64,000 nucleotides of DNA from Candidatus Dojkabacteria bacterium HGW-Dojkabacteria-1 (GCA_002840365.1 PHAO01000001.1:303514-367513), one strand, 5' to 3'. Shown: positions 10,972 to 46,370, counted from the first letter of the stretch. Translations and numbers: made by a program. The notes: generated from the sequence alone by a model not told the origin.

Positions 10972-13195
10972 ATTGTGTGTTTAAAAGTTTAAGTCTAAGA
11001 GAGTTTGCAACTACAGAAAAACTACTAAAAGCCATAGCTAATCCTGCAAAGATTGGATCTAAAAGTAACCCCCATACTGGATAGAATACTCCTGCTGCAA
11101 TTGGTATACATATTACGTTATAAATGAAAGCCCAGAAAAGATTTTGTTTTATTGTTTTCAATGTAGCTTTCGATACTTTAAATGCTGTAGGTATTCTGTT
11201 TAGATTACCCCCTAACAAAGTTATATCTGAAGTAGACATTGCAATTTCTGTCCCAGTAGCCATCGCTATACTTACATCAGAGGATGCAAGTGCAGGGGCA
11301 TCATTGATTCCATCTCCAACCATAGCTACAAGATTACCCTGCTTTTTATATTTGTTAACATATGATGCTTTTTGTGAGGGTAATACATCTGCATAGTATT
11401 CATCTATGCCAAGATTGTCTGCAATATTCTGTGCAGCATATTTATTATCTCCAGTTATCATAACTGTATGTATTCCTTGATTATGTAAGTTTGTTATTAC
11501 ATGTTTACTTTCAGCTTTTATTTTGTCTGAGATAATGATTATCGCTAACAGTGTCTTTTGATCACTTAACAGAACTACCGTTTTACCCTTGTTTTCATGC
11601 TTTTGAATATCTTTTTCATTAATTTCTATACCAAGACTCTGAATATATTTTGGTTTACCTATATAATATGTTTTTCTATTAATCTTTCCAGAAATTCCCT
11701 TCCCGTCGATATTTAAGAAATTATCAATTTCTATCTCCTTTATTTTCTTCGTTTTAAGGTAGGAAACTACAGAATGTGCAAGAGGATGTTGAGATTGAAG
11801 TTCTAGAGAATATATTATATTTTCCAAATTAGCCTTTTCTTTAATAAAGATTATTTTCTCTACCTTTGGTTTTCCCTCTGTTAATGTCCCTGTTTTATCA
11901 AATATTACTGTATTAATTTTATTAAGCTTTTCTAAGCTTTCTGCATTTTTAACCAATATTCCACTCTGTGCAGCTTTTCCTACTCCTACAATTATTGCTG
12001 TTGGTGTTGCAAGTCCTAGTGCACAAGGACATGCTATAACGAGTACTGCAACAAATGCTGATATACCCATAGAAATGAAGGTTGGGTTACTAAATGTAAA
12101 CCCACTATATATCCAAACAAGAATTGTAATAGTTGCAATGACTAGAATTGTTGGTACGAAGATACTAGAAATTTTATCTACAGTTTTTTGTATTTCTGTT
12201 TTTGAATTTTGGGCATCTTTAACAATTTTAATGATATTGGCTAGAGCGGTTTCTTCTCCTACTTTCTCTGCAGTTATTGTAAAAGTGCTTTGAATATTTA
12301 AAGTTCCTTCATATACTTTGTCTCCTTTAGCTACATCTTGAGGAATTGGTTCTCCAGTAAGCATAGACATGTCTATAACACCATTTCCTTTAAGAATTGT
12401 ACCATCAACAGGTATTTTAGCTCCTGGCTTTATCAATAGAGTATCTCCTTTGTTAATTTCAGAAATTAGAATTTCTATTTGCTCTTTTCCTTTTACTAGG
12501 ATAGCGGTTTTGGCTTGTAATGTAGCTAATTTTTTAATTGCTTCTCCTGTTTTGTATTTTGATTTGTATTCCAAGTATTTACCTAGATATACAAAACCGA
12601 TTACTACGATTACTGCATCAAAAAACGTATTGCTACTAAGATTTATTCCAATATTTAATACTTCATTTATATATACAAAAGTGCTGTATATGTATGCAGT
12701 AAATGTTCCAATACCAATTAAGGTATCCATATTTGCACTCGTACCTTTAAAGAATTTCTGTATACCTCTCCAAAAGGGTCTTCCTGCACTTACAATTATT
12801 ATTGTTGCTAATACAAGAAGTATTCCGTTCATAAGGTTGTATGGAATCATTACTTCTGGTAAACCCATAATGAACATTGAGGATATTTCATATATCATAA
12901 AGAAGAATACAAAAAGAGATATAGGAAGAATGTAAGAGAGTTTTCTAACTTTTTCTTTTAATTGAATTTCCTGTACATTTTCTTTTTCTGTTAATATTTC
13001 ATACCCCATGGGTTTGAGTATTTTGTTTATGCTTTCTATGTTATTTTTTGGATTTTCTGCTTCTATATACCCACTTTCTGATGCAAAATTCACAGAAAAA
13101 TTTTTTATACCTCTTTCCTTCTTAAGAATACTTTCTATGTTAAGTGCACATGTTGCACAACTCATTCCCTTTATTGCAAATTCTATTTTTTCCAT
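10964..13195 (-). CDS. copA: Copper-translocating P1B-type ATPase CopA
   Basis: N-terminal HMA (GMSCATCA), CPC motif (ACPCALG), DKTGTLT phosphorylation site and GDGINDAPAL hinge; 743 aa. Confidence 0.9.
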   Translation of the reverse strand: MEKIEFAIKGMSCATCALNIESILKKERGIKNFSVNFASESGYIEAENPKNNIESINKILKPMGYEILTEKENVQEIQLKEKVRKLSYILPISLFVFFFMIYEISSMFIMGLPEVMIPYNLMNGILLVLATIIIVSAGRPFWRGIQKFFKGTSANMDTLIGIGTFTAYIYSTFVYINEVLNIGINLSSNTFFDAVIVVIGFVYLGKYLEYKSKYKTGEAIKKLATLQAKTAILVKGKEQIEILISEINKGDTLLIKPGAKIPVDGTILKGNGVIDMSMLTGEPIPQDVAKGDKVYEGTLNIQSTFTITAEKVGEETALANIIKIVKDAQNSKTEIQKTVDKISSIFVPTILVIATITILVWIYSGFTFSNPTFISMGISAFVAVLVIACPCALGLATPTAIIVGVGKAAQSGILVKNAESLEKLNKINTVIFDKTGTLTEGKPKVEKIIFIKEKANLENIIYSLELQSQHPLAHSVVSYLKTKKIKEIEIDNFLNIDGKGISGKINRKTYYIGKPKYIQSLGIEINEKDIQKHENKGKTVVLLSDQKTLLAIIIISDKIKAESKHVITNLHNQGIHTVMITGDNKYAAQNIADNLGIDEYYADVLPSQKASYVNKYKKQGNLVAMVGDGINDAPALASSDVSIAMATGTEIAMSTSDITLLGGNLNRIPTAFKVSKATLKTIKQNLFWAFIYNVICIPIAAGVFYPVWGLLLDPIFAGLAMAFSSFSVVANSLRLKLLNTQYE

Positions 13196-26647: not shown

Positions 26648-27577
26648 GTGGATAATTTCAACAACAATGGTATACCAAATACCCCAAATCCTACTAATGA
26701 TGATACTACTACCCCAAGTACTGATTACAATTCAATGCAACCTCAATCAAATACATTAGGTGTATTACCTACAGATAATGTATCTGGTAGTGCTCCAATA
26801 GATGGACAAACTCCTGTAATGGATCAATCTCCAGATTTAGATGCTTCTGCAATAGATGCATTAGCAGCAAACCCTGAAGATATTAATGCTCAACTGGGAG
26901 TTCAAACCCCACCCATAGAAGAAACTGTTACACAATCTGAAACACCTGCAGAAGATACTGTCCCTGCTGTTGATGTTGCAGGGGCTCCTCAAGTAGTAGA
27001 TCTTTCTGCACCAGTTGAAGAGACTACTCTACCACAAGAAGAGACACTAGTTGAAACAACGGATTCAACATTATCAAGTACTCCAGATATGACAATGCAA
27101 TCTCCTATGGAAGAATCAATCCAACCAATGGAGACTCAAGTAGTAAGTGATACACCTGTAATGCCAGATGTACAACCTGTAACAGAAACAATGTCTATAC
27201 CCCAAGAAGAGGTAACTCCTGCCATGGAAAATACTTCAGACGTATTCGCATCTGCTCAGCCATCTCCAACTATGGAAGAGGCTCCTACGCCTCCTGTAAT
27301 GGAGAGTGCACCTGTCGCTGAAAGTATTGATTCTCAACCAGCATTCCCATCTGTACCTACACCTATGCCAGACATGTCTGCTAATTTAGCACAGCCACTT
27401 AATACAGTTGAACAAGCTCCTGTAGTTGAAGCATCCTCAGAGGAAGTTGTGAGTACACTAAACGAGAGTAGTAAGGAGGAGAAAGATAGTAGTGTGGTTA
27501 TTATTGTTTTGGTAGTAATAATAGTACTGCTTCTTGCAGGTATTGGATATTTTGGATATCAGATTTTTTTGAGTTAA
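26648..27577 (+). CDS. Acidic, Pro/Thr/Glu/Val-rich low-complexity protein with a single C-terminal TM anchor
   Basis: 309 aa, highly biased composition with no predicted globular region; the last about 30 aa (VVIIVLVVIIVLLLAGIGYFGY) are hydrophobic. Confidence 0.4.
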   Translation: MDNFNNNGIPNTPNPTNDDTTTPSTDYNSMQPQSNTLGVLPTDNVSGSAPIDGQTPVMDQSPDLDASAIDALAANPEDINAQLGVQTPPIEETVTQSETPAEDTVPAVDVAGAPQVVDLSAPVEETTLPQEETLVETTDSTLSSTPDMTMQSPMEESIQPMETQVVSDTPVMPDVQPVTETMSIPQEEVTPAMENTSDVFASAQPSPTMEEAPTPPVMESAPVAESIDSQPAFPSVPTPMPDMSANLAQPLNTVEQAPVVEASSEEVVSTLNESSKEEKDSSVVIIVLVVIIVLLLAGIGYFGYQIFLS

Positions 27578-28090: not shown

Positions 28091-28777
28091 TTGCTTAATA
28101 CAGCCAAGAGACTAGAATTAGAACATTTAGAGGTAAACCCAATAGAATTAGGGTATAGGTGGGATGCACTCAGAGGTAAGGTATTAGGTTTAATAGATTT
28201 CAGATTAGAGAATGGTAATCCTCGTCAGTGGTATATTGACCACTATTTGTATGATAAGGATTTGTTTGAAAATGCCTCATATATAGATGAAGTATATTGG
28301 GTAAATAGGGTTCCAAATGGTATTTTAGGTGAGGTATTCTTTTTGGAGGCATGTGAATATTTTGGTTTTGATTGTGTACCTACTGGAGGCGATGAGGATT
28401 CGTGGGGTGCTGATTTTAGATTAGCAAGTAGAGATGGTAGACAAACAAGATTTGTTGATGTAACTATAAATACATCGGAGAGGGGATTAAGGCAAAAGAA
28501 TAGGGTGGGAACATTCCCAACTCTCTTTATACCTTGGCATACAGATTACTACGACCAGAGACACTCACCCTCATATGCAGAAGAATATTTAACAACAGGT
28601 ACTTTTGATGCAGATATGTTTGTAGATGGTATTTTGACCTTTAACTATCGTAATTTACATGATTTAAGAAGGTCTGTATGGAGAGATTCCCCATGGGGAG
28701 AGGGATATATGGCACAAGACGGTATTACATATCTTAGAAACTTAGAAGGAGTTCTAGATATATTAAAGGAGAGATAG
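28091..28777 (+). CDS. Hypothetical protein (228 aa), Trp/Tyr/Asp-rich, higher GC than its neighbours
   Basis: ORF with a coherent codon pattern. A possible PD-(D/E)xK-like arrangement (D...VDVTIN...SERGLRQK) is speculative. Confidence 0.35.
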   Translation: MLNTAKRLELEHLEVNPIELGYRWDALRGKVLGLIDFRLENGNPRQWYIDHYLYDKDLFENASYIDEVYWVNRVPNGILGEVFFLEACEYFGFDCVPTGGDEDSWGADFRLASRDGRQTRFVDVTINTSERGLRQKNRVGTFPTLFIPWHTDYYDQRHSPSYAEEYLTTGTFDADMFVDGILTFNYRNLHDLRRSVWRDSPWGEGYMAQDGITYLRNLEGVLDILKER

Positions 28778-30313
28778 CTATATACTCTCAGTTGCTAGTA
28801 TCGTTATGGTAATATTTTTTTCTAAATAGTCAGTAGTTAAACTTGGTACTGTAATTCTAAAATCAACATTTTGAGTACTTGTTGGAGTAAGGCCAGAAAT
28901 CAGAGAGAAATATTGATCTGAGATAAAGAATTTATTCCATAGGGATCCTGAGTCTGTTGAATATTCATGAACAAAGGTATCATTACCATAAGTTGAACTT
29001 AATTCCCAAGGTACACCACCAAATGCGTTAGTGCTTTTTATTTGTAAATCAATATTTACATTTCCTGTATTTTTAATTGTTTGTGTATCACTTAAATCTA
29101 TTGTACTTCTACTTTCTGTTGCAGGTAATATACCATAGTCTATATCACCATCTGTTTCTATAGATATGGAAACTATTGGTGCTTCAGCAATTGTTGTAGT
29201 ACCGGTAATAACTACTGCCGTTGCAGGAGTAACAACGCCTGATGCTACTGTAACCTGGGTTGAAGGATTTGTAATTTGTATTTCTATAGTTTCTCCTATT
29301 TGTGCTCCAGAACCTATATCCAATTGTACATACAGGCAGGTTTGTGTAGCTCCAACACTCATACTTCCTGTAACAGTTGAACTCCCAGAGGAGAAAGAAC
29401 CAGGTGTAGAATTAAAGAGTGTTGCGTCTACAGGCTTTGATGTAGAGCAGCTACTCTCCTGCTTGTAGTAGAGTTTTAAATCTGAAAGATTTGAAGAAGA
29501 TACTGAACCTGTATGAGATATTGTTATACTCGTAACATTTCCAGACCCTTCATTCCTTACGAAGGTGAATGAACCTCCTATATTAAAATCGTTAGTATTA
29601 GGGTAAGTTTGGCTATTTTGTGTTCCAGATGTACCAACCGTTGTGGTAGGAGTATAGTGGGTAAAGTTTTCTATTCTACTGTTATATGTACTAGTTCCCC
29701 AATCAAAATCTCCTTGAGTATATCTTCCAGCCTGTCCACCAGTAGTTCTGCTTGTTCTTGTGGTATAGTAGATAACTGTCCACTCTTCCTGTCCCAAAAG
29801 AGTATTACCTAGCTGATTTGTAGTAAAAACAGGGGGGGTTCCTCCCTGTTGCCATCCACTTGTACCAACCTGTATATATACTCTTATCACAATACTGTCT
29901 GTAGTGTTGAGTATTGTTGGAGGAGGAGACCAATATCCTAATTGTGTACCTGCACCATTTCCACTTCTTTCTACTGTTGCAACTGGACTCCCACTTGTAA
30001 TTTCTGTTTCAACTCCCCCACTTGTTCTTTTCCACACCCTTATACCCCATGTCACCAGAGAACTACCACCATCTCCTGTTAATTGATAAAAAGTTGTTCT
30101 TCTTGTATTACTTTGTGCAGTTCCTAGCTGATATGCACTTAAACCATTTACTGTTTGTGTATCACCTCTAAAGTACCTTGTTTCAGAAGTAGCTTCTACA
30201 GGTTTAACTAAGGGATTTAAACTTGAAAGAAAGAAAGATAAAAAGAAAGAGATAAATACAAGTGCTGAAGTTTTTACTATCTTTAAAACAAAATCTTTAG
30301 ATACTGATAACAT
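28778..30313 (-). CDS. Thr/Ser/Gly-rich secreted or cell-surface protein
   Basis: N-terminal signal/anchor (ALVFISFFLSFFLSSL), then 511 aa dominated by T, S, G, N and Q. Confidence 0.45.
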   Translation of the reverse strand: MLSVSKDFVLKIVKTSALVFISFFLSFFLSSLNPLVKPVEATSETRYFRGDTQTVNGLSAYQLGTAQSNTRRTTFYQLTGDGGSSLVTWGIRVWKRTSGGVETEITSGSPVATVERSGNGAGTQLGYWSPPPTILNTTDSIVIRVYIQVGTSGWQQGGTPPVFTTNQLGNTLLGQEEWTVIYYTTRTSRTTGGQAGRYTQGDFDWGTSTYNSRIENFTHYTPTTTVGTSGTQNSQTYPNTNDFNIGGSFTFVRNEGSGNVTSITISHTGSVSSSNLSDLKLYYKQESSCSTSKPVDATLFNSTPGSFSSGSSTVTGSMSVGATQTCLYVQLDIGSGAQIGETIEIQITNPSTQVTVASGVVTPATAVVITGTTTIAEAPIVSISIETDGDIDYGILPATESRSTIDLSDTQTIKNTGNVNIDLQIKSTNAFGGVPWELSSTYGNDTFVHEYSTDSGSLWNKFFISDQYFSLISGLTPTSTQNVDFRITVPSLTTDYLEKNITITILATESI

Positions 30314-30370
30314 TGTAAAATTATAAACGAAAAGTATATATCTATGAAGTTTTTAATAACCCTATAGGAA

Positions 30371-31717
30371 TTAATAAATAATAGGACCAAACCAACTACT
30401 ATCAATATTTAGCAAGAAATATGGAATAGAGAATATAATAAGCAGTATTAATGTTGTTAGTATTATAAATAATCTTAAATACCTGTTATTAATACTTAAC
30501 CAAAATACAGATAACAATACATAAAAAGAAGATATTACTGGAAACATATATCTACCTTGTAATGCTAGAGTGGGATATCCTCTCTTTAAATACATATCAT
30601 AGTTCTGAAAGAAAAGTAGAATTAGTAAGTAAGATATTGTAATAAAGAAGAGATATTTGTGTTCTTTCTTTAATTTTTTCCAATTATATATACCAATTAG
30701 GAAAGAAATAACTATTAAAAAAGTAAAGACTGATATTGTTAAAATATCATGATAGAAACTACTATCCCCCATTATCCCTACAGTTCTCTTAGTCATTTCC
30801 CATACCCACACGCCTGTATACCTTAGAGGATCTAATCTCTCTCCACTTAGTATCATTTCTTTAAGATTTACTTCTACCGCAGGCATAGTAATCATATCTC
30901 TGTAATATACTCCGTTCTCCAAACATTGTTCATGGGTTAAAACTTTCTCACAACTAGGAGTAAGTTCTTGATATTTTAGTAAGTTGTTTCCATACAGTAA
31001 GATATTTAAGGTTCCAAAGAGTAATAGGGGTACAATGTAAAAAAGATCTCTCTTTTTAAAGCTTTCTTTCCATATATTGAAGTTTTTAATAAATTCAAAA
31101 AGCAAGAATATTACAAGTATTACTGCTAGTGGAACTATAGTGAACTTTGTTAAAGTTCCTAAACAAAGCATTAATATTGTTAAAAGTGGATACTTGAATT
31201 CTCCTTTGTATTTTATTGTTTTAACAAAAAACAGTATCGCAAATGTAGCAAACATGTTCCCTAAGTTGTCGTAATTAATTGAACTTGAAAGAAGTAAAAA
31301 CATTAATGTATTAGTTATTAATACCAATGGTATTAATCTTGCCCACTTGTTCTTAATTACTTCCTTAGAAAGCAAATATACTCCTACTAATGTAAGAAGT
31401 GAGTACACAATATTTATTATCCTAAGGAGAATTACATGATTGAATTCAAATATACTGTCATTTAGATTAAGTATTCTTCCATTTGTCCAAAAGTATAAAT
31501 ATGGAATATTAGTTATATCTCTCCATTGATATGTTACCTCTGCGTTCTCTGGAATTGTGAGTGTTGTCGAATATGTCTGTGATACTCTCAGGTGGTACCA
31601 AGAGTCCGGTGATATTTCCATTTTTACATTGAGTGCTAGATACAGGGTAAATGCAGCAAATATCAAAAAGATTAATCCTAGTATCAAATTGTATTTATTT
31701 ATTACTTTCTTTAACAA
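30371..31717 (-). CDS. GT-C-fold glycosyltransferase (PMT/ArnT-like; family 39/83 type)
   Basis: 448-aa polytopic membrane protein with an acidic first-loop motif (ISPDSWYHL) and topology resembling dolichyl/undecaprenyl-phosphate-sugar-dependent glycosyltransferases. Confidence 0.45.
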   Translation of the reverse strand: MLKKVINKYNLILGLIFLIFAAFTLYLALNVKMEISPDSWYHLRVSQTYSTTLTIPENAEVTYQWRDITNIPYLYFWTNGRILNLNDSIFEFNHVILLRIINIVYSLLTLVGVYLLSKEVIKNKWARLIPLVLITNTLMFLLLSSSINYDNLGNMFATFAILFFVKTIKYKGEFKYPLLTILMLCLGTLTKFTIVPLAVILVIFLLFEFIKNFNIWKESFKKRDLFYIVPLLLFGTLNILLYGNNLLKYQELTPSCEKVLTHEQCLENGVYYRDMITMPAVEVNLKEMILSGERLDPLRYTGVWVWEMTKRTVGIMGDSSFYHDILTISVFTFLIVISFLIGIYNWKKLKKEHKYLFFITISYLLILLFFQNYDMYLKRGYPTLALQGRYMFPVISSFYVLLSVFWLSINNRYLRLFIILTTLILLIIFSIPYFLLNIDSSWFGPIIY

Positions 31718-32672
31718 AGAAGATATCTTTCAATTTAAATTTCTTTACAAAGAGAGAAATCAGAATTAACAATCCAAGTAAGAGAAAAAACATTATGCCT
31801 CTATCAAGGAATGCTAATTGCATTACCTGTTCATTGGTTATCCCAATAGATTCGGATGTTACAAAAAAGACTGCTTCCCTTAATCCTAGTGAACCTGGTG
31901 TAATACTGATTAGTAGTGATACACCAGAAAGACATGTGTAAAGGAGTATATCTAAGATAGTAGCCTTTATTCCAAGACCAATGAATTCAATATAGTTTAT
32001 TATTCCATTTAATAGGATATTTCCTGTTGTGATAAATATTAAGGAAAGGAATAGTTTTTCTTTTCTTACAATCATATCCCAACTATTCATAAATTTGTTA
32101 AGTATTGTAAGTACTTTCTCAATATATTTATTACCTTTAATATTCTTTAGGTTAATGGTCTTTCTAAAGAGAATTACTCCTAGAGTTATAATGAAGAGAA
32201 ACACAAAAAAGATTGTTACTAAGGGGTATGTATTCCCTGTGTTTATGTATTTAGAGATTAAAGAGAGTAATGCAAAAAAGGCATTAATAAGAAAAAGTAA
32301 TATGTAGTATGCATAAAGAGTAGAAAGAAACTTAGAATATTCAAATTGATATTTATTTTTTAAATATGTAGCTCTAAATATTGCACCAGCTCTCATTGGA
32401 AGTAGGTAGTTACCAATTCTTGATATAGTTGAGAGATAGTATGCTTCCTTTAAGTCTATCTTCTTATCAAATACATTTAAGGTTACTTTAATGAAGATTC
32501 CTTCTAGAAGAAATACTAGTAGGAATATTCCCATTATTAAAGCAATATATATTGGATTTATTTGTAACAGTACTGAAAGAATCTGTTGATTGTTATATAG
32601 ATATATTCCGAAAAGGATTAATACGATTACTGTTAGTAGAGTAGATATACTGTTTTTAGAAAACATTTTCAT
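31695..32672 (-). CDS. UPF0104/LPG-synthase-TM ('flippase-like') family membrane protein
   Basis: 325 aa, about 8 TM helices, with Gly/Arg-containing loops (PMRAGAIFRATY) typical of the family. Confidence 0.4.
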   Translation of the reverse strand: MKMFSKNSISTLLTVIVLILFGIYLYNNQQILSVLLQINPIYIALIMGIFLLVFLLEGIFIKVTLNVFDKKIDLKEAYYLSTISRIGNYLLPMRAGAIFRATYLKNKYQFEYSKFLSTLYAYYILLFLINAFFALLSLISKYINTGNTYPLVTIFFVFLFIITLGVILFRKTINLKNIKGNKYIEKVLTILNKFMNSWDMIVRKEKLFLSLIFITTGNILLNGIINYIEFIGLGIKATILDILLYTCLSGVSLLISITPGSLGLREAVFFVTSESIGITNEQVMQLAFLDRGIMFFLLLGLLILISLFVKKFKLKDIFFVKESNK

Positions 32673-32710: not shown

Positions 32711-33736
32711 TTACTTCCTATCAACTTTTGTATATATTGAAGAGGAAATCTCCTTTAGAATTTCTTGTAAGCTTTCAAAATTAGAACCTTTTGTCATTAC
32801 ACAAAGAAGATATGGTTTGGTAGGATGATAGATTATTCCACAATCGTGTAATTGTTTTCTTTCATAGATTAGTGCATCTTTATACTCTCTTTCTCCAAAT
32901 TTATTTGAAATTTTTACATTTTCTGGTATTCCTGCAGAGAGTCCATCATCATACTCGGTTTGTGAAAGAACTTTTAATGCTTTCTCTGACATCTCCTTAT
33001 TTAAATATGAAGCATTGTAAAGAATTCTAAAGAAAGAAGCATAATCTTTTACTGTCATTGTATTTTCATTTTCTGGTTCATATGGATTTCTTAGACCTAA
33101 ATCTGTGTATATTTTTGCTAAATTTTCATAAGTAGTTAATTGTTCAATGGGGTATAGAGCATCATTATCAGAATAGATAATTAATTGTTCTACTAATCTA
33201 TCAAGGGTATATGTTTTTCCTTCTTCAAGATGATTTTCAGGAAGGAAATTTTGTGTAGCGCCAGTTTCCTCCCTTGTGAACACGATACTCTTTTCTAAAA
33301 GGTCTTTTTGTGATTCAGCTAATTTGTAAGTAGCAATCATAATTGGAAGCTTCAAAAGACTTGCTGGAGAAAAGGTTTCATCTTCATTTATTCCTATCCA
33401 TGCACCAGAGTTAAGATCTTTGTAATAGATAGAAATATGGGAGATGTTACTAATTCTATAATTTCCTATTTTTTCATCTATATAGCTTTGTAAATCTTTC
33501 TCTAACTTAACTAATTCCCCTATTTTTGCAGAATCAGTAGTTTCAAAATCAATTAAAGGATTAATAAATTCATATCCTCCCTCTCTTGTTTGTTTGTAAG
33601 CAAAATTCTCTTCTGATGGAAAAAATACTTTGTAAAGGATTCCCAAAGTAAAGCCAAGTATAAAGAAGAAAAACATTAAGATATATGAAATAGTTTTGTA
33701 AAGTTCCTTCTTTTCGTTGTCTTTCTTCTTACTCAT
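32711..33736 (-). CDS. Class-A beta-lactamase-like serine hydrolase (PBP-like) with N-terminal TM anchor
   Basis: SxxK (SLLK) and SDN (YSDNDA) motifs in the class-A order; the KTG motif is degenerate (KFG). Confidence 0.5.
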   Translation of the reverse strand: MSKKKDNEKKELYKTISYILMFFFFILGFTLGILYKVFFPSEENFAYKQTREGGYEFINPLIDFETTDSAKIGELVKLEKDLQSYIDEKIGNYRISNISHISIYYKDLNSGAWIGINEDETFSPASLLKLPIMIATYKLAESQKDLLEKSIVFTREETGATQNFLPENHLEEGKTYTLDRLVEQLIIYSDNDALYPIEQLTTYENLAKIYTDLGLRNPYEPENENTMTVKDYASFFRILYNASYLNKEMSEKALKVLSQTEYDDGLSAGIPENVKISNKFGEREYKDALIYERKQLHDCGIIYHPTKPYLLCVMTKGSNFESLQEILKEISSSIYTKVDRK

Positions 33737-33828
33737 ATCATTAATTCTATCTTTAAAGTATCAATTGTCAATGATTAATATTAAGAAGAGATATTGCACA
33801 AAAAGAGAGCTTATAGTATAATGTACGT

Positions 33829-43763: not shown

Positions 43764-44531
43764 TCAAAAGAAAAGTACTATTAACAGTACTATTCCCAAA
43801 AATATTCTATAGTATCCAAAGATACTTAACCATTTTTCTTTCTTTATATTTCTTAAGAGTATTAGTGCTAGATATGCAAAAAGAGAAGAAACAATTATTC
43901 CTACAAAATGTGTAATATTAAAACCATCTTGAGGGGAATATTTGAAAATACCGTATATAGAAGTACCTAAAAGTATCGGTATACCAAGAAGAAAAGAGTA
44001 CTGTAGTGCACTGTATTTATTTACTCCTGAAAGAATACCTGCAATCGTTGTTATACCTGATCTTGATGTCCCAGGAATAAGAGCAACAATTTGTGCCAAA
44101 CCCATTGTTAATGATTGTTTCCATGAGATTTCTCTAAGGTTAGATTCTTGTTTTTCTTTGTATTTTCTCTCAACCAATATCATTACAAGACCCCAGAATA
44201 TTAAGGAGAGAGCAATGAATATTTCTCCTCTTAATATTCCCTCTATTATAGATTGTAAGAAAAAACCAACTACTGCGGCAGGAATTGTTGATACAAGAAT
44301 TTTTAAATAGAAAGAATGAGTATCTTTTTGAAGAATTTCCTTAAAAAGAGTTGGAGCAAAATATACAACAATGGCTATGGTTGTACCTAAATGAAGTAAT
44401 GCAAGAATGTATGTATCTGCTTCTAACCCAATTAATTTACCGGTTAAGATTAAGTGTGCACTACTAGAAATGGGTAAGAGTTCCGTAATACCCTGTTCAA
44501 TTGCTAATAATATGACCTTAAACATCTCCAT
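43764..44531 (-). CDS. uppP: Undecaprenyl-diphosphatase (BacA/UppP)
   Basis: ELLPISSSAHL and the PGTSRSG motifs typical of UppP; 8 TM helices. Confidence 0.85.
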   Translation of the reverse strand: MEMFKVILLAIEQGITELLPISSSAHLILTGKLIGLEADTYILALLHLGTTIAIVVYFAPTLFKEILQKDTHSFYLKILVSTIPAAVVGFFLQSIIEGILRGEIFIALSLIFWGLVMILVERKYKEKQESNLREISWKQSLTMGLAQIVALIPGTSRSGITTIAGILSGVNKYSALQYSFLLGIPILLGTSIYGIFKYSPQDGFNITHFVGIIVSSLFAYLALILLRNIKKEKWLSIFGYYRIFLGIVLLIVLFF

Positions 44532-44578: not shown

Positions 44579-45268
44579 ATGATATTAAAAAATCTAGTTG
44601 TATATGTTCTTACTTTAATAATACTTGGTGTATCCCCTATATTAAGTCATGCTGCTTCTCCTAGTTTTTCCTTCTATCCTCAAAATGGTAGTGTAAGAGA
44701 TGCCTCTAAAGGTTTTACAGTTGATATATTAATAGATTCTGCAGGAGAAAGAATTACAAAAGCTAGGTTTGCAGTAACATTTGATCCGACCAAAATACAA
44801 ATTGTTAAAGCGAATAGGAATAATACTCTCTTTGATCAATGGCCTGAGGATGAAAGTACAATAGATAATCAGAGAGGGATGGTAATGCTAACTGGTTTTA
44901 CTCAATCAGGTGGTACAAAAAGTCTCTACCTAACCGAGGGAGAGCCAGACGTTATGGCAAGATTAGAATTTGAAGTTATTACTGAAGAAAAAGGAGAGAT
45001 AGTATTGAATTTCGAATATTCAGGAGGTGACGATTTATTCAAATCTGTAATTATGAAAGAGGGTAGTCCTCCTCAAAATGTTCTAGCTTCTCAACCAGAA
45101 TCAGCAAATTTTGCATTAAGAGGATTTGTAAGTCCAAGTACTGCCATAGAACCAAGCCATCTTGGTATTGTTGCTGGTTTAGTTTTAATTGCAGTAGGTA
45201 TCTTTATCAGTAATTCTAAAGTATCTTCTTTTAGAAAACGTAAGGGTACTGTTGTATTGTATGAATAA
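44579..45268 (+). CDS. Secreted protein with a C-terminal TM anchor (possible cohesin-like beta-sandwich surface protein)
   Basis: Signal peptide, a beta-rich central region and a C-terminal hydrophobic helix followed by basic residues. Confidence 0.35.
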   Translation: MILKNLVVYVLTLIILGVSPILSHAASPSFSFYPQNGSVRDASKGFTVDILIDSAGERITKARFAVTFDPTKIQIVKANRNNTLFDQWPEDESTIDNQRGMVMLTGFTQSGGTKSLYLTEGEPDVMARLEFEVITEEKGEIVLNFEYSGGDDLFKSVIMKEGSPPQNVLASQPESANFALRGFVSPSTAIEPSHLGIVAGLVLIAVGIFISNSKVSSFRKRKGTVVLYE

Positions 45269-46370
45269 AGATATTTCAAATCTTAAAGTAGCTATTGTTT
45301 CTGATCACTATTTTACTTTTGCTGGGGCTAGCTTTGTTACAAAAGAGCTAGGTTCTTTGTTTAAAAATCCACATTACTATTTTTTAATGGGTGATTCAAT
45401 CAAGGCAAAGAAATATTTCAAAACGAATAGGATATTTTTCACTGGATTAAACAAATTCCCACTATTGAAAAAATACTACAGATATACATACTTTCTTTGG
45501 CCAGTATTTATAGAAACTTTTGATTTCTCTAAATATGATTTAGTAATTTCAAGTAGTTTTTCAGTTTCTCATGGTGTAATAACGGGTATTTATACAAAAC
45601 ATATTGCATATATTCATACCCCTATGAGATATGCATGGGATTTAACCAATGAATACTTTCCTTCAAAGACATTTTTTCTTAAAAGATTGATTGTTCATTT
45701 CTTTTTGAACTTTTTAAGAATATGGGATGTATATGCTTCTAGTAGGGCAGATTGTATTCTTGCAAATTCAAATTTTGTAAGAGACAGGGTAACGAAATAT
45801 TGGAAAAGGAATGTAGACAAAGTAATACATCCTCCAGTGAGTTTGTATAAAGGTAAAACTATTACAAGAAGAGAGAAGTATTTTGTTGCAGGAGCACCCT
45901 TTGAACCTAACAAGGGGGGATATTTTATCTTACATTGTGCTTCTAAGTTAGGTTTCGAATTAAAAGTAATTGGTATAGGAGATTCATACAAAAAATTAAG
46001 GAAAAAATACTCTAAAAACGAAAACATACATTTCTTAGGAAAAGTTACCGACAAGGAAAAATATGATGTACTATCAAAAGCACAAGGTTTCATATGCTCT
46101 GGTACAGAAGATTTTGGTATTTTCCCTGTAGAAGCAATGTCTTGTGGTACTCCTGTTTTGGCGATTAGAAAGGGTGGGTATTTAGATTTTGTACAGGAAG
46201 GTGTTAATGGAATGTTTTTTGACTATCAAATTGTTGAATCATTTGAAACTGTATACAAATCTTTTAAAAAGAAAAAATGGGATTATGCAAAAGTAAAAGA
46301 CTCTGTAAAAGGCTTTGCTAAAGAGAGATTTGAGAAAGAAATAAAAACTTTCGTATTGAAAAATATCTAA
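45252..46370 (+). CDS. GT4-family (GT-B) glycosyltransferase
   Basis: C-terminal EDFGIFPVEAMSCGTPVLA (E-x7-E motif) typical of retaining GT4 enzymes. Confidence 0.7.
   Translation: MYCMNKDISNLKVAIVSDHYFTFAGASFVTKELGSLFKNPHYYFLMGDSIKAKKYFKTNRIFFTGLNKFPLLKKYYRYTYFLWPVFIETFDFSKYDLVISSSFSVSHGVITGIYTKHIAYIHTPMRYAWDLTNEYFPSKTFFLKRLIVHFFLNFLRIWDVYASSRADCILANSNFVRDRVTKYWKRNVDKVIHPPVSLYKGKTITRREKYFVAGAPFEPNKGGYFILHCASKLGFELKVIGIGDSYKKLRKKYSKNENIHFLGKVTDKEKYDVLSKAQGFICSGTEDFGIFPVEAMSCGTPVLAIRKGGYLDFVQEGVNGMFFDYQIVESFETVYKSFKKKKWDYAKVKDSVKGFAKERFEKEIKTFVLKNI

Follow-up and report, generated by a model that had tools for sequence, protein, structure and literature searches.

In a 64,000-nt stretch of the genome of Candidatus Dojkabacteria bacterium HGW-Dojkabacteria-1 (GCA_002840365.1 PHAO01000001.1:303514-367513; hereafter the window, with positions counted from its first nucleotide), two overlapping minus-strand genes encode a flippase-like membrane protein of 325 residues (C325) and a 448-residue glycosyltransferase of the GT-C type (B448). 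Our analysis indicates that this pair is probably a conserved core, coupled in translation, of a transmembrane glycosylation system of the multi-component ('three-component') kind in this small-genome bacterium, a member of the Dojkabacteria within the candidate phyla radiation (CPR), and that the Ser/Thr-rich protein encoded 3′ of the pair (A511, 511 residues) is not its dedicated partner. An earlier reading of the locus made from the DNA alone (the sequence-only reading) had joined all three genes in a possible protein O-glycosylation module with A511 as the substrate. The machinery half of that proposal is supported because of the identities of the GT-C and flippase-like proteins, their coupling, and the presence of a family 2 glycosyltransferase (GT2) gene 5′ of the pair in relatives; the half that made A511 a dedicated substrate did not survive comparison with those relatives.

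Under the mechanism that we favor, a GT2 enzyme of the GtrB/DPM1/AglJ type would charge polyprenyl phosphate with a monosaccharide on the cytoplasmic side of the membrane, C325, as a UPF0104 (MprF-flippase-like) protein, would bring the lipid-linked sugar across to the outer leaflet, and B448 would pass the sugar to an extracytoplasmic acceptor, with Asp38 of its first outer loop serving as the base. The GT2 enzyme would be encoded elsewhere in the HGW-Dojkabacteria-1 genome and, in some relatives, directly 5′ of the pair. All three open reading frames (ORFs) of the sequence-only reading were found as consecutive minus-strand genes: the C325 gene at 31695-32672 (ATG start), the B448 gene at 30371-31717 (TTG start), and the A511 gene at 28778-30313 (ATG start). 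The end of the C325 gene overlaps the TTG start of the B448 gene by 23 nt (31695-31717, minus strand), an arrangement predicted to couple translation of the two.

C325 proved to be the UPF0104 flippase-like protein that it had been taken for. It matched Pfam PF03706 (LPG_synthase_TM/UPF0104) over residues 12-299 of its 325 and model positions 5-299 of 302, with an E-value of 5.6e-32 and a score of 111.8 bits where the cutoff is 33.4, and it matched TIGR00374, 'flippase-like domain', with an E-value of 6.4e-23 (81.7 bits against a cutoff of 43.2). The ~325-residue protein has eight transmembrane helices and is covered entirely by the membrane domain. It thereby resembles the membrane (flippase) domain of MprF, which it matches at full length, but lacks the C-terminal aminoacyl-phosphatidylglycerol synthase domain of that protein; NF033480, the model for bifunctional MprF, scored 15 bits against a cutoff of 600. 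We infer that C325 is a predicted flippase of a lipid-linked sugar. Translocation by UPF0104 domains has likewise been predicted for the C-terminal domain of AglD (PMC5898192) and for GpgF (PMC12713373), and has been demonstrated experimentally only for MprF.

B448 matched the Pfam family PMT_2 with an E-value of 2.3e-11, exceeding the curated cutoff. It had no match in NCBIfam at E ≤ 0.1, and so none to an ArnT-type model either, and comparison of the single sequence or of a 41-sequence profile with PDB sequences returned nothing meaningful. An AlphaFold2 model of B448 built with 41 homologs was almost wholly helical (pLDDT, the predicted local-distance-difference score, 89.5; pTM, the predicted template-modeling score or TM-score, 0.91), and when this model was compared with the PDB using Foldseek, the matches ranked 1-37 were all GT-C enzymes at probabilities of 0.98-1.00, including AglB, STT3, ArnT, ALG9/12, Pmt4, EmbB, PglB, and DPY19, with query TM-scores of ~0.34-0.54. 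At the level of the predicted structure, these matches settle the fold of B448 as GT-C, in agreement with the sequence-only reading, and, being roughly equal in quality, do not single out a sub-family: protein O-mannosyltransferases (PMTs) were not preferred over AglB/STT3, ArnT, or ALG9, and ArnT (5ezm) aligned with a TM-score of 0.52 by query or 0.45 by target and a root-mean-square deviation of 6.4 Å.

Assignment of B448 to the PMTs was not established. The PMT_2 match stands, and the 232 B448 homologs that we found carry, where their source gives a name, GT39 or ArnT-like names, with 'glycosyltransferase family 39 protein' the NCBI label on B448 relatives. The Pfam PMT model (PF02366) did not match B448 itself at E ≤ 0.1; it matched 35 of the 41 homologs at E ≤ 0.01 (best, 4.6e-9), while 24 also matched PMT_2 and 11 matched DUF2142. 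In addition, the B448 ortholog group has an Asp-Ser dipeptide where PMTs have Asp-Glu, which occurs only in paralogs and distant homologs.

The first-loop acidic motif pointed out earlier, DSWYH, was located at B448 residues 38-42, just past the first transmembrane helix (residues 8-30 in the model), in what conservation and the model indicate is the first extracytoplasmic loop; the codons of S36-P-D38-S-W-Y-H42 lie at 31592-31612 on the minus strand. S36, D38, S39, Y41, and H42 were invariant in the 41 homologs, and D38 was also invariant in 26 far more divergent members of the family. Across the family it reads P-D-[E/S]-x-x-[H/W], and the Asp is kept down to 25-32% identity in members that include Geobacteraceae, Myxococcota, Thermodesulfobacteriota, and Bdellovibrionota, and three further motifs (S-Y-D-N, L-T-K, and L-Q-G-R-Y-x-F-P) were kept in nearly all divergent members. 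This pattern of conservation makes D38 the putative catalytic base, and K191 and R389, which are also invariant, probably bind the lipid phosphate. B448 is predicted to use a polyprenyl-phosphate sugar donor, and the GT2 genes beside the pair in relatives, described next, support this indirectly.

We compared gene content in 9 loci around B448 homologs and 57 loci from species-representative genomes, each labeled with an L-number, and scanned all of their ORFs with hidden Markov models built from alignments made in this analysis. A flippase-like gene lay directly 5′ of the GT-C gene and overlapped it in ~35 Dojkabacteria loci, across which the identity of the GT-C protein to B448 fell from 93% to ~35%, and the overlaps spanned ~13-32 nt in nearly all related paired loci. 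A GT2 gene lay directly 5′ of the flippase-like gene in L003/L004, L017, L024, L026, and L032, and nearby in L047, with a methyltransferase gene between the two in L003/L004 and L017. The best models for the L003 GT2 protein were AglJ, PpgS, dolichyl-phosphate-hexose transferase, ArnC, and PgfS, and this protein bears a C-terminal transmembrane hairpin typical of polyprenyl-phosphate-sugar synthases. GT2 genes adjoined distant members of the B448 family as well (L050, L056, and L057).

Other features of these loci were noted. The order GT2, S-adenosylmethionine-dependent methyltransferase, (flippase-like), GT-C was found at L003 5456-9356, L017 2535-6456, and L057 2231-5691, and the GT2-methyltransferase-GT-C order is common to Dojkabacteria and a Geobacteraceae genome; from this recurrence the module seems to be old, and the sugar that it adds or uses may be methylated. 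Some Dojkabacteria hold two paralogs of the B448 family (L037/L038, L018/L040, and L042/L047); members of the paralog clade mostly have no adjoining flippase-like gene, L047 being one that does. Two B448-family copies stand in tandem at L050 1375-5410, followed by a GT2 gene. A heliorhodopsin gene (PF18761; L003 11175-11936, minus strand) lies 1.8 kb 3′ of the GT-C gene in L003.

Several observations weigh against the proposal that C325 and B448 form the core of such a system. The flipping of a polyprenyl-phosphate sugar by a UPF0104 protein has never been shown experimentally, and the assignment of GpgF is also unverified (PMC12713373). Two orthologous loci (L022 and L023) and paralogous or distant GT-C clades have no adjoining flippase-like gene. 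The sequence-only reading had found no GT2 gene in the immediate cluster, and our family scans found none in the whole window; nor was a GT2 of HGW-Dojkabacteria-1 located among the best 120 of 4208 matches to the L003 GT2. With respect to A511, its gene is co-directional with the pair and starts 57 nt beyond the B448 stop codon, with no terminator-like site found in the gap by a terminator scan, and in Caldicellulosiruptor bescii the gene for a family 39 (GT39) enzyme lies near celA, close to the acceptor gene (PMC6151902).

The first of these observations bears on a different role for C325, in which the protein would be a general phospholipid or glycolipid translocase (a 'PplT' role) unrelated to the donor of B448, and the overlap of the two genes would reflect shared regulation of membrane biogenesis. 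The sole demonstrated activity of the domain is the flipping of aminoacyl-phosphatidylglycerol in MprF, a preprint on PplT favors a general phospholipid role (10.1101/2022.03.11.483950), and the UPF0104 protein GpgF has been tied to a glycosylated phospholipid rather than to a polyprenyl sugar (PMC12713373). We nevertheless regard this role as unlikely. The overlapping of reading frames with the GT-C gene has been kept over deep divergence, a GT2 gene of the polyprenyl-phosphate-sugar type lies immediately 5′ of the flippase-like gene in six distinct loci, and the same three families are neighbors or are fused in archaea, as in the C-terminal domain of AglD and in MJ_1079/MJ_1080 (PMC5898192). 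Moreover, no flippase of the GtrA or Wzx type was seen in the 9 loci around B448 homologs, and none adjoins the pair in the window.

A coupled C325-B448 core is also consistent with systems already described. In the three-component scheme, a GT2 enzyme makes a polyprenyl-phosphate sugar, a flippase moves the lipid-linked sugar, and a GT-C enzyme transfers the sugar outside the membrane (PMC8035078); examples include GtrA/GtrB/GtrC, CsbB/GtcA/YfhO, and GtlA/GtcA/GtlB (PMC8035078, PMC11127046). In the relatives L003, L017, L024, L026, and L032, an adjoining membrane GT2 gene, predicted to serve polyprenyl-phosphate-sugar synthesis, recalls these systems. The Dojkabacteria loci also share with them a polytopic GT-C enzyme whose outer loop bears an acidic motif (GtlB and GttB being, like B448, of the PMT_2 type) and genetic linkage of the GT-C and flippase-like genes throughout the ~35 paired loci. 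They differ in that the flippase of characterized bacterial systems is of the GtrA or Wzx type (PMC8035078), whereas here its slot is filled by a UPF0104/MprF-like protein, which is not of the small GtrA type or the Wzx type and whose function may match. Further differences are that the window has no GT2 gene, that a methyltransferase gene is inserted in some relatives, and that the host is a CPR bacterium.

A close parallel in gene content comes from archaea. Makarova, Galperin & Koonin (2015) described neighborhoods that contain UPF0104 (arCOG00899), PMT/STT3-like (arCOG00563; for example, MJ_1079), and AglD-like GT2 (arCOG00897; for example, MJ_1080) genes, and read them as glycosylation systems; AglD itself is a GT2-UPF0104 fusion (PMC5898192). 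The same three Pfam-level families are linked in both cases, and the UPF0104 protein was inferred there to be a lipid-linked-sugar flippase. The locus studied here is bacterial and has overlapping genes in place of a fusion; the likeness holds at the level of families, and both systems are known from genes alone.

GT39 enzymes O-glycosylate proteins in Actinobacteria and Caldicellulosiruptor (PMC6151902), and GT39 genes are reported in >3,800 bacterial genomes (PMC11727336). B448 shares with the PMTs of this family (Pmt of Mycobacterium and Streptomyces; Cbes_1864 of C. bescii, PMC6151902) the GT-C fold, a lipid-phosphate sugar donor as predicted, and the acidic motif in the first loop. It differs from them in missing the Pfam PMT model, in having Asp-Ser for Asp-Glu, and in finding its best fold matches outside the PMTs; the substrates of those enzymes have disordered Thr/Pro-rich linkers, which A511 does not, and no flippase-like partner has been described for them. 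ArnT (GT83), like B448, matches PMT_2 and has a membrane domain of similar size, and two ArnT structures (5ezm and 5f15) were among the best structural matches. Unlike ArnT, however, B448 lacks a C-terminal periplasmic domain and an NCBIfam ArnT-type match, and the flippase of known ArnT systems is ArnE/ArnF. A CPR bacterium of the monoderm type would not be expected to have lipid A.

The most tentative element of the proposed mechanism is the acceptor, for which glycopolymers or lipids of the cell envelope are candidates, as are envelope proteins at large. A PMT_2/GT39-like match does not imply a protein acceptor, because enzymes of this kind act on teichoic acids (GtlB and GttB) or on lipid A (ArnT). 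A more specific version of our explanation names the acceptor class and has the pair modify either a glycopolymer of the cell envelope (one resembling teichoic acid, or a polysaccharide linked to peptidoglycan) or a membrane lipid (a glycolipid), in the manner of GtlB, GttB, and YfhO with teichoic acids and of ArnT with lipid A. We view this version as a serious, if tentative, candidate and consider general protein O-glycosylation to be somewhat less likely. The PMT_2-domain GT-C enzymes GtlB and GttB act on lipoteichoic and wall teichoic acids (PMC8035078), and ArnT (5ezm) is among the best fold matches of B448, but AglB and STT3, which glycosylate proteins, match equally well. The B448 model is small, with no soluble C-terminal or acceptor-binding domain, and near-universal retention of the pair in Dojkabacteria is as expected of a core envelope function; nothing in the sequence identifies the acceptor, however. 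Envelope genes are numerous in the window (uppP, ftsW, and genes for a DD-carboxypeptidase, PGA_cap, and a LiaF-like protein), but teichoic-acid or polysaccharide backbone genes adjoining the pair are absent from it. PMT-type protein O-mannosylation, which the sequence-only reading had invoked, was not established: PMT_2-type enzymes glycosylate teichoic acids as well (PMC8035078).

One neighbor of the pair has some bearing on an envelope acceptor. A gene for a membrane-anchored, class-A β-lactamase-like serine enzyme (Beta-lactamase2, Pfam PF13354, E 3.4e-39; 32711-33736, minus strand), related in type to penicillin-binding proteins, is co-directional with the C325 gene and lies 38 nt upstream of it. 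This gene hints weakly at a link with the cell wall in this sub-clade; it is present 5′ of the pair in the window, in L007-L013, and in L035, and absent from L001, L003, L005, and L006, and its restriction to one sub-clade counts against its use in naming an acceptor for the pair as a whole. In that sub-clade only, the transcription unit may begin with it. Of the promoter-like sites in the region, the one nearest to the sigma-70 consensus (TTGACA-16-TAGAAT; 11/12 positions, a consensus match only) lies just 5′ of it at 33744-33771 on the minus strand. By eye, S-x-x-K (as SLLK) and S-D-N motifs can be made out in the encoded protein, with K-F-G replacing K-T-G.

A511 was a variable element of the locus. 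A gene like it stood beside the pair in only 4 of the ~35 paired loci (the window, L009, L010, and L013) and was absent from L006, whose GT-C protein is 82% identical to B448, and from L007/8/11 (70%), L012 (68%), and L001/14 (64%), which are otherwise syntenic, with the 228-aa ORF, desulfoferrodoxin, PGA_cap, and CofD genes in the same order. Persistence of the Thr-rich gene beside the GT-C gene in related genomes, the lack of which the sequence-only reading had named as a refutation, was thus not observed. In L010, the closest relative, identity to the window is 83-96% for the flanking genes but 64% for the A511 ortholog (11243-12786), whose reading frame is broken by a frameshift near 11443-11485; this marks a pseudogene or else a fault in the assembly. 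The DNA of L009 and L013 is 99.5% identical up to the start codon of the A511-like gene and 97.6% identical from mid-gene on, with zero similarity over the first 730-825 nt of the gene (L009 9407-10138 and L013 3805-4629, orthologous to ~29580-30313 of the window). Because the 5′ ends share no similarity despite near-identical flanks, L009 and L013 differ by replacement of one cassette that carries both signal peptide and N-terminal domain.

In composition, A511 is Ser/Thr-enriched, as had been claimed, at 28.7% Ser+Thr compared to 14.0 ± 4.4% for the long ORFs of the window (~3.4 standard deviations above the mean, the extreme value), and it is of a secreted type. It is not 'overwhelmingly' Thr, Ser, Gly, Asn, and Gln, which together account for 48%, and its sequence is not low-complexity. 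We found no family match in Pfam, NCBIfam, or PHROGs and no meaningful match among PDB sequences. BLAST comparison with 62 homologs divided the protein, after a signal/anchor helix (residues 1-41; 30191-30313), into three modules, D1 (residues 42-220; 29654-30190), D2 (residues 221-385; 29159-29653), and D3 (residues 386-511; 28781-29158), all on the minus strand, which are shuffled independently among the homologs; in other Patescibacteria proteins, they are joined to Laminin_G_3, dockerin, cohesin, or subtilase domains. AlphaFold2 predicted a signal-peptide-like helix at residues 6-31 followed by V-E-A, all-β D1 and D2 domains with pLDDT >90, and a D3 domain with pLDDT ~50. Foldseek comparison of this model with the PDB and BFVD gave weak, generic matches to β-sandwich or carbohydrate-binding-module (CBM)-like folds at query TM-scores ≤0.24 (a sialidase CBM, Vip3, cohesin, and phage tail proteins), from which no function could be assigned. 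Given its modeling as folded β domains, A511 appears to be a folded, modular secreted or surface protein and not a mucin-like or linker-rich substrate, contrary to the view of it as a classic O-glycosylation substrate. The sequence LPATE (residues 395-399) was considered as a sortase signal and rejected, as it lies >110 residues from the C-terminus with no hydrophobic tail after it.

These properties make it quite unlikely that the locus is a dedicated protein O-glycosylation module in which B448 O-glycosylates Ser/Thr residues of the neighboring A511. In addition to the scarcity of A511-like genes beside the pair, their loss from close syntenic relatives, and the frameshift in the closest one, homologs of A511 in other contexts lie away from GT-C genes (the three D2-module homologs looked at adjoin tsaD, hisS, or a subtilase gene plus a LysM gene), and the predicted compact β-sandwiches lack the long, disordered Thr/Pro-rich linkers that are glycosylated in known GT39 substrates. 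A consensus scan also placed a promoter-like site directly 5′ of the A511 start codon; promoter-like matches in the region were rarer than in its shuffles. A dedicated substrate would, on the other hand, be in keeping with the shared strand and short, terminator-free gap described above and with the C. bescii precedent, as well as with the signal-peptide-like N-terminus, the extreme Ser+Thr content, and the weak matches of most B448 relatives to Pfam PMT. With a promoter-like site before A511 and no terminator-like site, the scans point neither way on co-transcription of A511 with the pair; both co-transcription and glycosylation of A511 may occur. We conclude that A511 is not a dedicated partner and that its gene, a hypervariable and dispensable one for a surface protein, is separate from the pair and occupies a variable slot 3′ of it. 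We also considered A511 as an acceptor-recognition accessory for the small GT-C enzyme, an idea put forward in the literature (PMC8035078), and rejected it as the main reading, as the gene is missing from most genomes that keep the pair.

A bolder version of the same idea makes the UPF0104 protein a dedicated polyprenyl-phosphate-sugar flippase of a GT-C system that O-glycosylates hypervariable Ser/Thr-rich surface proteins like A511. We regard this version as very unlikely. If true, it would describe the first protein O-glycosylation pathway in CPR/Patescibacteria and would for the first time place a stand-alone MprF-like flippase, by function, in a glycosylation pathway.

The window has a G+C content of 30-38% and genes that include ftsA/Z/W, uppP, and those for aminoacyl-tRNA synthetases, both in keeping with a CPR/Patescibacteria genome. 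The glycosyltransferase family 4 (GT4) gene reported at 45252 was confirmed at 45252-46370 (plus strand). Its start is overlapped by the gene for a 229-aa protein with a weak cohesin-domain match (44579-45268, plus strand), and uppP (43764-44531) adjoins these two genes, giving another small envelope-related cluster. Next to the A511 gene, a 228-aa ORF with no family match (28091-28777, plus strand) is, in close relatives, always convergent with the GT-C gene or an A511-like gene. A 309-aa protein (26648-27577, plus strand) is rich in Pro, Thr, Ser, Glu, and Gln, apparently disordered, and ends in a single C-terminal transmembrane helix, with a composition more mucin-like than that of A511; its position is kept and its sequence evolves fast (83% identity in L010, 62% in L006, and 33% in L013).

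The locus is a predicted, fairly ordinary case of a known class of system, with an archaeal counterpart already predicted in 2015, and it leaves current categories unchanged. For Dojkabacteria, retention of the flippase-like/GT-C pair in most sampled loci suggests a core step in glycosylation of the envelope, and the rapid divergence, loss, and cassette replacement of A511-type genes are what exposure of a protein to hosts or phages would be expected to bring about. For the UPF0104 family, the overlap with GT-C genes and the presence of GT2 genes 5′ of the pair in some genomes are good comparative evidence for the long-standing prediction that MprF-like domains move lipid-linked sugars, and the pair offers a compact two- or three-gene system for testing it. 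The most useful leads from this locus are the clean comparative support for UPF0104 proteins as lipid-linked-sugar flippases and the hypervariable surface-protein slot beside the pair.

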